Part shown: positions 8,664 to 21,103 of the stretch, one piece after another
Position numbering within the stretch: position 1 is the first letter of the stretch
How the letters are laid out: every line of letters starts with the position of its first letter
IMG/VR virus record: IMGVR_UViG_2913152634_000005
Source: a virus
Taxonomy: Duplodnaviria; Heunggongvirae; Uroviricota; Caudoviricetes
Length of the DNA stretch: 35,154 nucleotides
Direction: 5' to 3' (one strand)
Made by a program: the position numbers and the translations under genes
The notes under the pieces: generated by a model
Seen by the model: the letters and a program-made list of their open reading frames with translations, nothing else
What the model was told of the DNA's origin: nothing
Databases searched by the model: none

Positions 8664-9449
8664 TTACGCCAGTTGTACGGACACGAACTCATCAGGGTCA
8701 GCCAGCAGCATCAGCGGTGCTGACTGAATCATGGTGAACTCACGCGCCGGATCGCCGGTGGTCACCCAGTTTTTCGGGTAGCGGGCAGAGGCGTTAATGC
8801 CTTCGCGCTGTGCGTCCGCATCCTGAATGCAGCCATAGGTGCGCAGACCGCGTGCCTGAGTGTTCCCCAGTACCATCGTGTTGTCCGGCAGGAAGTTCTT
8901 TTTGACGCCGTTTTCCACGTACTGTCCGGAATACACGACGATGGCCACATCGCCATACATCCCCTTATAGGACACCGCTTTACCCAGGTCTTTTACCGCT
9001 GTCTCCAGCTCGGAATTAGAGCCGCGACGGGTATCCAGCTTCTCCCTGACAGCTTTGAAGGAACGGAACAGCGCCCAGCCTTTCGGATCAAACACGATGA
9101 TATTCACCACACCGCTGGCATTCAGCGCGTAGGCTTCAATATCGTCGGTCGGGTCATACGTGGACTTGTCACGCTTGCTCCACTCCGTGCCGCCGGACTG
9201 TGTGATGTTGTTCGCCGCACTGCGGCCCATATCCACCTCAACCGGATCGAAGGCTTCACCGGTCATGGTGTATTTGCCCCTGAGCACGGCAGAAACGGCC
9301 TGCATCTCTTCGACCTGAGCAATGGCCAGCTCTTCGTCTCGCATGTTCTGCAGGATGATGCGACGGCGGCGGTAAGCCGGGTCCGCCAGATTCTGTGGAT
9401 CTTCATCCGGCAGGCGACGCAGAGTCATCTGCGGATTCACCTCATGCTT
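8664..9449 (-). pseudogene. E: major capsid protein E, 3' fragment (about codon 82 to the stop)
   Basis: Translation PKHEVNPQMTLRRLPDEDPQNLADPAYRRRR...EFVSVQLA matches lambda gpE from residue ~82; an in-frame TAA lies immediately upstream. Confidence 0.88.
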
Positions 9450-9573
9450 GGGTTACATGAGTCAAATATGAAAGGATGTGAATGATTTTTAGTGATAATA
9501 TGCTTCAGAATTACTTCCAAAACGAACCGTTGCAATACATCATGCAATACACAGGATATGTAAGGAGTTATTA

Positions 9574-9759
9574 ATGACTAATTCAGTTGATGTTCAAACC
9601 CGTAGAGAAGAATTTGAGCAAGGATATCGAGATGGCTTTCGTTCGGTTCAGGGCAATGTTTTACCCCCAAAAGCTCCAAGAATTGTACTTGAAACGGGTT
9701 CAAAACCTTACGATCAAGGCCATGCTTACGGGGTCAGAGATGCTGGAGGCAAGCGGTAG
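9574..9759 (+). CDS. hypothetical small protein, first gene of a two-gene cargo operon
   Basis: 61-aa ORF with strong RBS taaggag 7 nt before the ATG; followed 44 nt later by the Abi_C gene. Confidence 0.5.
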   Translation: MTNSVDVQTRREEFEQGYRDGFRSVQGNVLPPKAPRIVLETGSKPYDQGHAYGVRDAGGKR

Positions 9760-9803
9760 CTATCACTGGTATAGTCCATAGAAAAAGTGTAAGGGGTCCT
9801 AAA

Positions 9804-10565
9804 ATGGATAATTTTCTCAATGAGTTTTCGTCGGATCAGGAACGAGCTAGACATTTAGAGAACTTATTAATTAAGGTTGCTCGAGGAGGACCTCGAGATA
9901 ATAGTGAAAATTATATTTCTCTTAGATCGTACTTTATACAAAACTCTGTATTAAAACTGTTGCTTCCTGCATTCGTAAGAGAAAACAGAAGCCTAAAAAA
10001 ATTTTGGGGATTCATACAGCAGAAGTTCCCAACATATAAAGAGCGCGAGTACTTCATCTCAACTGAATTCACACCGTTATTCGATTATTTCGAAGAGAAT
10101 CATGCTACGCCTTCGGATGTTCACATAACTGACGGATTAAGAAGCTATGATGAGTGTGGCGTGAATGAAGCTTGGGCAAAAGCTCTAGACAGAAGAAACA
10201 ACGATCCTGAAGGGGCTATTACAGCATCTAGAACATTGCTTGAGACGGTTTGTAAACACATTCTTGATGATTTAAGTATTACTTATGATAGAAATCTAGA
10301 CATGAGTGAACTTTATAAACTAACATCCAAAGCACTTAATTTGGCTCCAGATCAGCACGGAGAACAGATTTTTAAGCAGATACTTAAAGGTTGCTCATCT
10401 GTGGTAAATGGCCTTGGCAATTTACGTAATAAATATGGCGATGCTCATGGCATAGGGAAAAAACCAATAAAACCTGCTGATCGACATGCTCTTTTAGCTG
10501 TTAATCTTGCAGGAAGCATGTCAGTTTTCCTCATTCAAACATGGCAAAACTTGTCAAACAAATAA
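9804..10565 (+). CDS. Abi_C/HEPN-domain abortive-infection-like protein
   Basis: 253 aa; C-terminal signature GLGNLRNKYGDAHG...HALLAVNLAGSMSVFL (R-x6-H HEPN motif typical of the Abi_C family); AT-rich; RBS aagggg. Confidence 0.72.
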   Translation: MDNFLNEFSSDQERARHLENLLIKVARGGPRDNSENYISLRSYFIQNSVLKLLLPAFVRENRSLKKFWGFIQQKFPTYKEREYFISTEFTPLFDYFEENHATPSDVHITDGLRSYDECGVNEAWAKALDRRNNDPEGAITASRTLLETVCKHILDDLSITYDRNLDMSELYKLTSKALNLAPDQHGEQIFKQILKGCSSVVNGLGNLRNKYGDAHGIGKKPIKPADRHALLAVNLAGSMSVFLIQTWQNLSNK

Positions 10566-11329
10566 TACCTAATTTTTAACCTCAACTGATTAAATTTCGG
10601 TCAAACATCCGTTAGTGAAATACAAGTTGCTATGTAAATACACACCTGCAACTTGTATTACCAACCAAGTTTAGCTCCCGATATTACTCATTTCCATTAT
10701 TTTTCCTTGGCTAGCGCTTCGTCGAACATTTTTACGTGTTATCTTCAAGGTAGATGCTCGCAGAAATGATAGTACCACCGATTCGGCGTTGACCATAAGC
10801 CAGCAGAACAAGATCCCCTTGGCCGGTTGTATTCGTTACACCACCAAATGCATAGAATGCCTTGTTATCAGTATCTTGCTTACTCGGCTACCCACAAGAT
10901 TGTGGGGATAGCATTTGAGCAACGTAGCCTATCGTCACAGAAGCCCCTACTACAAACATCATATTACTGGACGCTATACGCGCTCCTGACATTCAGATAG
11001 ACACAGCAACGCAAATCATTTGCAGCAGACCAGAGCTTTTACTTTCCACAATAACTGGCACAAATACGAATTTCCCGACCCTCAGTAGAGAGCACAAGCG
11101 CATCTTTTCCAATATTCTGTTTCCTATGAAAAATACAGAATGTCAGCTCGCGAAATTTACTAGTATTCAGATACTTTTCTAATCGAACCTCTCAGTTTAA
11201 TCGTCATCATTACCTTATAGCTCTGCATTTCGAGTTCCTACAGTAGAGTAAGTGTTCAGTAACCCAAGTTCAGGAGAAAGGAAACGATCATGCCATTTTC
11301 AGTCCCAAATAATGCTTTCCATTTCCTTT

Positions 11330-19222: not shown

Positions 19223-19225
19223 GAT

Positions 19226-19459
19226 TTACTTATTTAAGTACCATTCCCCACGAATCCACGCCTGCACCTCCGAAAGGCGATATGCTACGGCAGTGGCACC
19301 TATTTTAATTCGCTTTGGAAACTTTCCTTCTTTCTCTAACTTCCATCGAGTGCTATTAGCAAGAGTAGTTAACTCACGGCATTCTTTCTCACGGATCATT
19401 CGGTCAATGTTAGGAATGTATTCCAGACCCTTTTTATCAACAATTGCCATTTTTTTCAT
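19226..19459 (-). CDS. alpA: AlpA-family excisionase/transcriptional regulator
   Basis: 77 aa; HTH CRELTTLANSTRWKLEKEGKFPKRIKIG; immediately downstream of int. Confidence 0.7.
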   Translation of the reverse strand: MKKMAIVDKKGLEYIPNIDRMIREKECRELTTLANSTRWKLEKEGKFPKRIKIGATAVAYRLSEVQAWIRGEWYLNK

Positions 19460-19460
19460 G

Positions 19461-20573
19461 TTAACCAGCCTTTTGTTTGAGGATTGTCACTTTTGAATCA
19501 GCAGCTGCGATGCTATTGAGATATGTAGTCCAGAGTTCCAGAGCATCCAGTTTTTTAGCCATAAACTTACTCCGGTTGTAAACACCTGCCACGCCAGGTA
19601 GCGCATGGCCTAACAGTTGTTCTACTACATAAAATTCAACACCGAGATCACTTAGATGAGTAGATAGCGTTCTTCTAAGGTCGTGTAGTGACCATTGTTT
19701 TTCATGGCCCAAACGTTTACCGATTTTCCCCCCAATCTTGCTTACGCTTTCTCTAATTCGCAGACTTCCCAGCACATAACCAGTATGTTTTGTCTCTTCG
19801 TGAACATCCGTTACCCACTGTCGTAGAATTTCAGGTACTGGTCTGACGATTTCAACACCAGTTTTTGAGTGATCTTTTGGTACAGTCCAAACCCAACTTT
19901 CGAGATCCCATTCGCTCCATTCTGATAATCGGGCTTCACTCATTCGACATCCAAATACTGTACAAAGCACAAACATTTTTCGCGTGTATTCAGACATTAG
20001 TTTTAAATCAGGCTCGACAAAAATTGCCTTCCAGAGCTGGCCGAGTTCGGCTTCATCCAGAACCCGATCCCGCTTACCTGCAATCTGCCCCACATCACTC
20101 ATGCGCAAATCCTTTAAAGCATCACACGTCGCGTACTGGCGTACCCGACAAAAACGAAGAGCTAATTTAGTGTCAGAAAAAACATACGCCGCCATAACTG
20201 GTGCATTACTTTTAATTCGGTCAAAACAGTCCAGCCATTCATATAGGTGAGTGTCATTTACGGGCAAATGACCGATATAGGGAAAGATATGCTTTCGAAA
20301 TCTGCCAAGCGTTACAGCATGAGTTTTACGACGCACCTTACAGTAATTTTCATACCAGTAATTTAGTGCATCCTCCACTGTGACCGGCTTTAAGCGTTCT
20401 TCAGCCTGAATCTTAATCTGGATACGCGGATCACGTTTGTCAGCCAACCAAGCACGGCACTCGTCGCGCTTTTCCCTTGCCTGTTTGAGTGACATATCAG
20501 GATATTTACCCAACGTTAGCCAGACCGGAGCAGCCCGGCCACCTGCTAACCTGTAGAAGAAAACAAAGCTCAC
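19461..20573 (-). CDS. int: tyrosine integrase (P4-type), catalytic portion; N-terminal arm-binding segment lies in another frame at 20573-20695
   Basis: 370 aa with R...HDLRRT...LLGH...Y tyrosine-recombinase motifs; ORF 20570-20827 encodes the expected N-terminus MAGENKLSDKALKGYLGKPREKQITIADGKGLSIRVSTKGL and stops 1 nt out of frame. Confidence 0.8.
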   Translation of the reverse strand: MSFVFFYRLAGGRAAPVWLTLGKYPDMSLKQAREKRDECRAWLADKRDPRIQIKIQAEERLKPVTVEDALNYWYENYCKVRRKTHAVTLGRFRKHIFPYIGHLPVNDTHLYEWLDCFDRIKSNAPVMAAYVFSDTKLALRFCRVRQYATCDALKDLRMSDVGQIAGKRDRVLDEAELGQLWKAIFVEPDLKLMSEYTRKMFVLCTVFGCRMSEARLSEWSEWDLESWVWTVPKDHSKTGVEIVRPVPEILRQWVTDVHEETKHTGYVLGSLRIRESVSKIGGKIGKRLGHEKQWSLHDLRRTLSTHLSDLGVEFYVVEQLLGHALPGVAGVYNRSKFMAKKLDALELWTTYLNSIAAADSKVTILKQKAG

Positions 20574-20827
20574 AGCCCCTTGGTACTCACACGAATAGAA
20601 AGCCCCTTTCCATCAGCAATGGTGATCTGCTTTTCTCTGGGTTTCCCCAGATATCCTTTAAGTGCTTTGTCGCTCAGTTTGTTCTCGCCAGCCATTTTTA
20701 GCCCCAAAAAGCAATACAAGCTGCAATACAGAGATGATTGCAACACACAGATAACGAGGAAAATCCAGTGAAAGCGCCAGATAAACTTATTCTTTATTAT
20801 CAAAAGATTAAGTGTAAAAACCAGCAA

Positions 20828-21103
20828 CTACACGAAAGCCTCAGAAAGCCATGCTAAGTGCTTCGGCTTGACATATCCCGGCGTAAATTCAGAGGTGGAG
20901 CCGCCACGGGAGCGGATAACCTCACCGGAAACAATCGGCGAAACGTACAGCGCCATGTTTACCAGCCCCGGAATTTGTGAGAGATAGACTTTCTCCGTGG
21001 TGAAGGGATAGCTCTCACGGAAAAAGAGACGCAGAAACAGCGGATCAAACTTAAATTTCTGCTCATTTGCCGCCAGCAGCTGGGCGGTTGTGTACATCGA
21101 CAT
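20828..21103 (-). pseudogene. E: major capsid protein E, 5' fragment (codons 1-84 plus 9 element-derived codons)
   Basis: MSMYTTAQLLAANEQKFKFDPLFLRLFFRESYPFTTEKVYLSQIPGLVNMALYVSPIVSGEVIRSRGGSTSEFTPGYVKPKH matches lambda gpE 1-84, then LAWLSEAFV-stop. Confidence 0.88.

Follow-up and report, generated by a model that had tools for sequence, protein, structure and literature searches.

An element assigned to the 11capE family of helper-embedded PICIs interrupts capsid gene E of a lambdoid prophage in Escherichia coli RM14723

INTRODUCTION

Helper-embedded PICIs (HE-PICIs; PICI, phage-inducible chromosomal island) were described as a family by Tommasini, Mageeney & Williams (2023, NAR Genom Bioinform 5:lqad036; PMC10111431), with 11capE of Escherichia coli NRG857c as the prototype, i.e. 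an 11-kb island which disrupts E, the lambda-type capsid gene of prophage 50icd, and carries a capsid gene of its own. The same study counted 201 HE-PICIs at the site E:Phage_cap_E:80 and a further 290 at other late-gene sites, and set out an organization in four ordered zones, termed Integration (int and alpA), Bro, Replication (primase, SSB and ori) and Late (captured late genes). When NRG857c was treated with mitomycin C, the composite of prophage and satellite was excised and then replicated, with precise excision of the satellite coming last, as followed by quantitative PCR and deep sequencing (PMC10111431). In the present paper we examine a segment of 11.4 kb that lies within gene E of a lambdoid prophage on a stretch of viral DNA of 35,154 nt (IMG/VR virus record IMGVR_UViG_2913152634_000005; the whole of this stretch is referred to as the window, and positions are those of the window unless another sequence is named), and we compare this segment with 11capE and with other satellites.

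P4-like satellites carry variable defence cargo, and P4 itself integrates in a tRNA gene and not in a gene of its helper. The cf-PICIs, described by Alqurainy et al. in 2023, are said to come with a complete head and packaging module of their own, comprising TerS, portal, protease, capsid and connectors. A further point of comparison is EcCICFT073 (Fillol-Salom et al. 2018 ISME J; 2019 Mol Cell, PMC6739421), which requires the protein RppA; this pairs with the phage TerS and recognizes a PICI-specific cosB (PMC6739421).

RESULTS

Identity of the element

Positions 9000-21300 of the window were found to be 100% identical to the chromosome of E. coli RM14723 (NZ_CP027103.1, in which the record coordinate equals the window coordinate + 2887126). 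The inserted satellite occupies window positions 9446-20859, a length of 11,414 bp, and lies within codon 81/82 of E, the lambda-type capsid gene of an RM14723 prophage. These are exactly the bounds of an entry in supplementary file 3 of the 2023 study, Eco8567.11.E_Phage_cap_E_80, which is given there as CP027103.1/2907985-2896572 with the identity block 'aagca', and the near-identical copy in strain 2015C-4136CT1 is likewise catalogued (PMC10111431). Both the family and this exact element have therefore been known since 2023, and the locus holds no new biology. A preliminary description of this DNA, made from the letters alone, had supposed that a satellite which targets a capsid gene and brings its own capsid homologue was undescribed; that supposition was false, as PMC10111431 names the family and lists this copy. 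Its biological reading, i.e. site-specific integration of a satellite with a P4-type integrase, AlpA and a primase into a lambdoid prophage's capsid gene, was correct.

From its integrase, its site and orientation, the AAGCA block common to its attL and attR, the uninterrupted attB of related genomes, the spacing of its arm motifs and the listing by the original authors, the 11.4-kb segment is almost certainly an HE-PICI of the 11capE family that occupies the site E:Phage_cap_E:80 in an E. coli RM14723 lambdoid prophage. All backbone genes of the satellite share the minus strand with the helper late genes. Along the element, the Integration, Replication and Late zones follow one another in the published order, and the interval between alpA and the replication genes is taken up by an Icd-like/repressor-like gene together with cargo on the opposite strand. 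The coordinates of all features are collected in Table 1.

Table 1. Features of the satellite and of the surrounding helper prophage (window coordinates)
Feature	Position	Strand	Remarks
nleC	1-1020		Type III effector, downstream of helper tail-fibre genes
nleB2	1054-2034		Type III effector
DUF1076 protein	2396-2974		
IS3-family element	5397-6654	-	Replaces helper V(3')-G-T-H-M-L-K-I-J
Helper genes beyond U			Truncated V, IS3 element, lom, tail-fibre genes
Helper capsid gene E, 3' fragment	8664-9449	-	Lys81 to stop; RefSeq 'major capsid protein, missing N-terminus'
Satellite, assigned to the helper-embedded PICIs	9446-20859	-	11,414 bp; backbone co-oriented with helper late operon
Doubled TGTATTGC attP arm motif, far side	9532-9551	-	Ends 85 nt before core centre
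Cargo, far end: 61-aa ORF (open reading frame) and AbiJ-like abortive-infection protein	9574-10565	+	Pfam Abi_C, 1.7e-23; PADLOC AbiJ, 2.4e-22
Satellite cos	11322-11471	-	150 bp, 87% identical to helper cos 27119-27268
Satellite cosN variant GGGCGGAAGGCG	11428-11439	-	cos alignment
Captured K 3' end and intact tail assembly gene I	11503-12246	-	Pfam Lambda_tail_I, 1e-23; between AlpA-like gene and cos
Second AlpA-family winged-helix protein, 127 aa	12246-12629	-	Pfam AlpA, 1.3e-8; between decoration gene and cos
Satellite D-family head decoration protein, 113 aa	12641-12982	-	Pfam HDPD, 4e-15
Satellite E-family major capsid protein, 346 aa	12992-14032	-	Pfam Phage_cap_E, 4.5e-41
SSB	14250-14699	-	Pfam SSB, 5e-15
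Conserved 85-aa ORF	14696-14953		Before SSB; phrog_1231 listed with SSB entry
Putative replication origin	15002-15228	.	Nine AGGTAGAYA iterons in both orientations, AT-rich stretch among them; directly downstream of primase gene
P4-alpha-type primase/helicase	15243-16993	-	Pfam D5_N, DUF5906, Pox_D5; frameshifted ~16335
DUF4222 protein	16990-17289		After small ORFs; DUF4222, 9e-24
Three small conserved ORFs	17307-17905		After Icd-like gene
Icd-like/repressor-like small protein	17898-18161	-	RefSeq; phrog_6196 'transcriptional repressor', 3e-55
Variable cargo slot: Arc/HicB-like 64-aa protein and unknown 241-aa protein	18241-19185	+	After alpA; Pfam HicB-like
AlpA-family excisionase/regulator	19226-19459	-	Pfam Phage_AlpA, 6.5e-15
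Tyrosine integrase, 11capE clade	19461-20695	-	Pfam Phage_integrase and Arm-DNA-bind_3; frameshifted ~20576
Doubled TGTATTGC attP arm motif, int side	20711-20730	-	Starts 131 nt after core centre, just upstream of int start codon
Helper capsid gene E, 5' fragment	20859-21103	-	Codons 1-81 and CA of His82; RefSeq 'major capsid protein, missing C-terminus'
Helper head genes		-	nu1, A, W, B, C (S49 peptidase), D, split E, then FI, FII, Z, U
Helper lambda-type cosN GGGCGGCGACCT	27225-27236	-	Upstream of nu1

Split capsid gene and attachment sites

Gene E is indeed divided into two parts, as had been proposed from the sequence. The 5' part ends at 20859, where the gene strand reads …GTC AAG CCG AAG CA/C TTAGCATGG (the solidus marks the end of this part), and so comprises codons 1-81 plus two bases of His82 rather than the codons 1-84 first assigned to it. 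The 3' part starts at 9449 and reads CATGTAACCC AAG CAT GAG GTG…. When the two parts were fused in silico with a single copy of AAGCA, an ORF of 1026 nt encoding 341 aa was obtained. The shared core, which is TGCTT on the plus strand and AAGCA on the gene strand, was seen at both junctions as previously stated, with the attR copy at 9445-9449 and the attL copy at 20859-20863. An imperfect direct repeat of ~17 bp around the core, also part of the preliminary description, does exist, but it is weak (attL, GTCAAGCCGAAGCA; attR, GT-AACCCAAGCA) and the exact core within it amounts to 5 bp. This copy has a mixed att class, its attL being AGCCGAAGCA and its attR AACCCAAGCA. The corresponding attP junction of the satellite would be …CATGTAACCCAAGCACTTAGCATGG… and the junction of the restored E gene …GTCAAGCCGAAGCATGAGGTG….

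The doubled TGTATTGC arm motif is present near each end of the element. Five copies of TGTATTGC were counted in the window against 1.48 expected, four of which are grouped in two tandem pairs on the minus strand, the fifth being an unrelated copy on the plus strand. The offsets of the arm motifs from the centre of AAGCA, 85 and 131 nt, were identical in the window, NRG857c and VCSW7. Measured from the centre of the 10-bp block, the offsets were ~82 and ~134 nt; the published attP motif, tgTGTATTGCantgTGTATTGCa, occurs as two co-oriented copies placed 81 ± 2 upstream and 132 ± 2 downstream of the attP centre (PMC10111431). The GCAATACA arm-type repeats that were noted at the outset are thus the published doubled TGTATTGC motif at the spacing of the prototype. 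In addition, the int region matched that of 11capE in NRG857c at 1417 of 1432 nt. The minus strand showed no terminator-like site in the interval from the E 5' fragment to int, a finding that is compatible with, and is no test of, the published hypothesis of read-through from the late operon; the same interval contains one weak promoter-like site (20818→20789).

The capsid gene carried by the satellite itself reads AAGCCGAAAAGCAGC at the position equivalent to att (window 13900-13960), where helper E reads AAGCCGAAGCATGAG. The AAGCA core is kept in the satellite gene, offset by 2 nt and with different flanks, in agreement with the published remark that self-integration is unlikely.

Evidence for a mobile insertion

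An empty-site counterpart was found in strain Z1323PEC0014, the prophage of which is ~99% identical on both flanks, has an uninterrupted E gene and a complete tail module, and has many protein accessions in common with the RM14723 prophage. Window 33968→20859 aligned with Z1323PEC0014 (L004) 1145-14245 at 99.0% identity, and window 9458→6655 with 14230-17035 at 99.1% identity. The homology to this prophage ends at the element bounds, 9446 and 20859.

We also searched 5426 complete E. coli genomes with a 438-nt probe centred on the reconstructed E junction. The junction was uninterrupted in 3101 of these genomes, three of which were 100% identical over the 438 nt, and in all 80 of the matching phage records; the attL junction, which denotes an occupied site, was present in 172 of the 5426 genomes. 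Conversely, the satellite backbone was found in none of 50,697 phage records, in which the K/I fragment and cos gave the sole matches. The intact E allele that the preliminary description had proposed to look for in related genomes was thus found, and neither of the findings that it held would overturn its reading, i.e. an ancestral head-module segment or junctions lacking a shared core, was encountered.

Gene content

The genes and sites first listed from the sequence (P4-type integrase, AlpA, primase/helicase, iterons, SSB and cos-like site) were all recovered by Pfam, motif counts and cos alignment, and the capsid homologue proposed for the satellite was borne out by its Phage_cap_E match. 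This capsid protein also matched PDB entry 3bqw (6e-121) and lambda gpE (7vi9; 8e-77), and its identity amounts to 42% with helper E and 55% with the capsid of EcCICFT073. The D-family decoration protein of the satellite showed 35% identity with helper D and 54% with the EcCICFT073 counterpart. The second AlpA-like protein, of 127 aa, has conserved N- and C-terminal extensions and 99 homologues across the Enterobacteriaceae, and is conserved in the satellite family. The adjacent K'/I fragment shares 80-90% identity with lambdoid-phage K/I genes and is not found in the NRG857c and VCSW7 copies; it is an instance of the late-gene capture described in PMC10111431.

At the putative origin, nine exact copies of AGGTAGAYA lie within 227 bp, compared with 0.27 expected for the whole window. 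One 9-bp iteron unit (ACCTTGTCT, at 14998-15006) is additional when the region is compared with Z1323HEC0355, whose copy is 99.9% identical, so that iteron copy number varies among near-identical copies.

The cargo occupies two slots on the opposite strand. At the alpA-side slot, relatives have DUF2971 and SWIM genes or other unrelated genes, and cargo genes among the relatives include DUF2971 + SWIM, TIR, or DUF262 + HEPN, the last of these at the far-end slot. Because relatives carry these different genes, the two slots look like defence-gene hotspots. The 241-aa cargo protein had no Pfam, PADLOC or PHROG match, and the 61-aa cargo ORF none in PADLOC or PHROG. The ~750 bp between the Abi gene and cos (10566-11320) contain no convincing ORF and gave no Rfam match, and are conserved in VCSW7.

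On the helper side, the tail segment that is replaced by the IS3-family element measures ~9.8 kb and corresponds to Z1323PEC0014 (L004) 17036-26820; Z1323HEC0355 has the same deletion. The type III effector gene nleD lies just outside the left edge of the window.

cos site and packaging

Neither an exact lambda cosN nor one with up to two mismatches was found in the satellite, and its cos was located by similarity to the helper cos. Its cosN, GGGCGGAAGGCG, equals that of the VCSW7 helper prophage. The satellites of NRG857c and VCSW7 have a third cosN variant, GGGCGTCAGGCG. Through the cosB region, which follows cosN, the satellite cos is ~90% identical to the helper cos, and we take this region to hold R3, R2 and R1 by the lambda R-site consensus CGTTTCCtTTCT. 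Because of this helper-like cosB region with its three R sites, we infer that helper Nu1 would recognize the satellite cos directly. The prototype 11capE satellite and its helper likewise share a cos segment (PMC10111431).

No counterpart of Rpp came to light: when the whole window was searched by tblastn with RppA (c1503), no match had E < 0.07. The 127-aa AlpA-family protein was considered for this role and rejected, as its sequence is unrelated to RppA. It gave no BLASTP alignment to RppA c1503 or to the 137-aa neighbour of the latter, and in a PDB sequence search its sole match was the AlpA-family entry 8c3t (1.6e-10). Its AlphaFold model, with a pLDDT (predicted local distance difference test) score of 49 from an alignment of 19 sequences, was too poor for fold comparison.

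Comparison with known satellites

The closest relative is 11capE of NRG857c, with which the element shares the site at E codon ~80, the orientation, an integrase that is ~99% identical at the nucleotide level and the offsets of the doubled TGTATTGC motif. The gene order is also the same: int-alpA, a variable zone, DUF4222-primase-ori-SSB, capsid-decoration-AlpA-like-cos, and cargo. The two agree at 94% identity over the D–E'–int–alpA block, at 97.8% over the block from SSB through capsid and decoration genes to HTH (helix–turn–helix), and at 92% over cos. They differ in the primase, which is a different allele with 75-80% nucleotide identity, and in cargo, which in NRG857c comprises DUF262 + HEPN, YlcI and others, and here the AbiJ-like gene, the Arc/HicB-like gene and the gene for the 241-aa protein. 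Further differences are the extra K'/I fragment found here and the identity block between attL and attR, which is 5 bp here versus 10 bp. The RM14723 helper, unlike that of NRG857c, is not at icd, carries nleB2, nleC and nleD, and has lost tail genes.

EcCICFT073 resembles the element in its similar size, its int-alpA-pri backbone, its lambda-like cos, its lambdoid helpers, and its E-family capsid and D-family decoration proteins. In contrast, EcCICFT073 is chromosomal and apart from its helper, needs RppA (c1503) and differs from the phage in its cosB, whereas the element described here has no detectable Rpp and a helper-like cosB region. The features of a Gram-negative cos PICI backbone are all present, i.e. 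the order int-alpA-pri, a size of 11.4 kb (range 10-20 kb), a cos site and an ori, the position of which downstream of pri is the published layout of such PICIs (PMC10111431). Assignment to the cf-PICIs was rejected: the element does have its own capsid protein, but a complete head and packaging module is missing and the capsid and decoration homologues alone are present.

DISCUSSION

Several observations weigh against the assignment to the HE-PICIs of the 11capE family. The core common to attL and attR is just 5 bp, which is below the usual length of the overlap region of tyrosine recombinases. In the RM14723 assembly, both int and primase are frameshifted. The helper lacks V-J, so that the composite could not make infectious particles unaided. 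The cosN of the satellite, GGGCGGAAGGCG, differs from the GGGCGGCGACCT of the resident helper at five of 12 positions. Pfam returned no Bro-N match for the 'Bro zone', and an Rfam scan of 9000-21300 at E <= 0.1 gave no match and hence no C4/isrK RNA. Finally, no virions of helper or satellite were detectable even for the NRG857c prototype (PMC10111431).

The frameshifts and the tail-less helper would together fit a dead relic, in which int and primase are truly inactive and the element is a fixed island with an Abi gene. The int gene has a C5->C4 contraction at ~20576 and the primase gene a G5->G4 contraction at ~16335, each a one-base deletion, and RefSeq flags both as frameshifted pseudogenes; in addition, the deletion in which IS3 stands in place of helper V-J is common to Z1323HEC0355. 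Against this, each of the two indels shortens a 5-base homopolymer, as long-read assembly errors usually do, and they are the sole differences from the 2015C-4136CT1 copy over 12.3 kb, with no substitutions. The int gene is intact in Z1323HEC0355 and 2015C-4136CT1, and an intact primase of 583 aa is encoded in both of these and in VCSW7. Since homopolymer indels without any substitution are absent from the sister copies, they are probably assembly errors, although real slippage is possible, and we do not accept them as proof of decay. Another lambdoid prophage in the same cell may also provide tails. Overall, we consider that RM14723 could hold such a relic but rather doubt it.

About as tentative is the suggestion that the attL/attR pair with its 5-bp core is the product of homologous recombination in which two satellite-bearing prophages took part, one AGCCGAAGCA-ended and the other AACCCAAGCA-ended, and not by direct integration. 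Besides the two different att sequences of this copy, the occurrence of both pure att classes in the published catalogue (PMC10111431) and the mosaic nature of the satellites, in which the divergent primase stands between flanking blocks of 94-98% identity to the prototype, speak in favour of such a hybrid. The mixed class, however, recurs in several catalogued elements with different cargo ends (Eco8357, Eco14731 and Eco6131), and would be expected if an AACCC-type attP had integrated directly, and more than once, into an AGCCG-type E, the strands being exchanged inside AAGCA. Mixed cases of this kind served the authors of the catalogue to localize the core (PMC10111431). We regard a hybrid origin of these junctions as rather unlikely.

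The lack of Rpp together with a helper-type cosB, a cosN that is mismatched to the resident prophage and equal to that of the VCSW7 helper, and a resident without tails could also mean that the lineage is embedded in a prophage other than its working helper, which strikes us as improbable. If it were true, helper-embedded satellites could be capsid-gene locks in non-cognate or decaying prophages, with cutting and tails coming from other lambdoid prophages, and their role could be mainly that of a fixed carrier of Abi-type defence genes.

It is very unlikely that the element would be better classed as a P4-like satellite than as a PICI, and we rejected this assignment as the defining genes are missing. 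The likeness to P4 is real in the type of integrase (with Arm-DNA-bind_3), the AlpA-like regulator, the P4-alpha-type primase (D5_N, DUF5906, Pox_D5) and the Icd-like gene. However, among the 20 proteins scanned, none had a Pfam or PHROG match to Psu, Sid, Delta or Epsilon, and neither a CI/seqA nor a C4/isrK immunity RNA was found. The late genes are of the lambda type (E, D and I), as is cos, rather than of the P2 type, and both order and content match EcCICFT073. Lastly, an ancestral or assembly-derived origin of the 11.4 kb as part of a phage head module, for which we found no support beyond the fact that the E-, D-, K- and I-type late genes of the element could mislead, is excluded for practical purposes by the empty-site prophage with its two matching flanks, the uninterrupted E of so many genomes and phage records, the lack of the backbone from the phage records and the identical junction in the 172 independent complete genomes.

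With the element taken as an integrated HE-PICI of the 11capE family, its life cycle can be proposed as follows. The P4-type tyrosine integrase would have recombined an attP, with an AAGCA core within AACCCAAGCA and two doubled TGTATTGC arms, with codon 81/82 of helper E, and this would have left the satellite backbone co-oriented with the helper late operon. Upon SOS induction, the entire prophage–satellite composite would excise and replicate, and precise excision of the satellite would later restore E, both steps having been demonstrated in the prototype. Read-through from the late operon may drive int and alpA, as hypothesized in PMC10111431. Gene content and layout suggest that the satellite uses its own primase and iteron origin for replication, and the helper terminase would package it into lambdoid heads, acting at its lambda-like cos. 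It presumably carries variable anti-phage cargo, in this case the AbiJ-like gene.

A reading of the raw sequence alone thus recovered the anatomy of this element correctly, and the present comparison adds an empty-site control, i.e. a ~99% identical prophage with an intact E gene. The details of this copy, namely the probable homopolymer errors, the tail-less helper, the K'/I fragment, the lack of Rpp and the cosN mismatch, may be of use for studies of packaging specificity. For the biology of the family the meaning is that established in 2023: the helper is without its capsid protein until the satellite departs, and it provides the satellite with passive replication and probably with late transcription.

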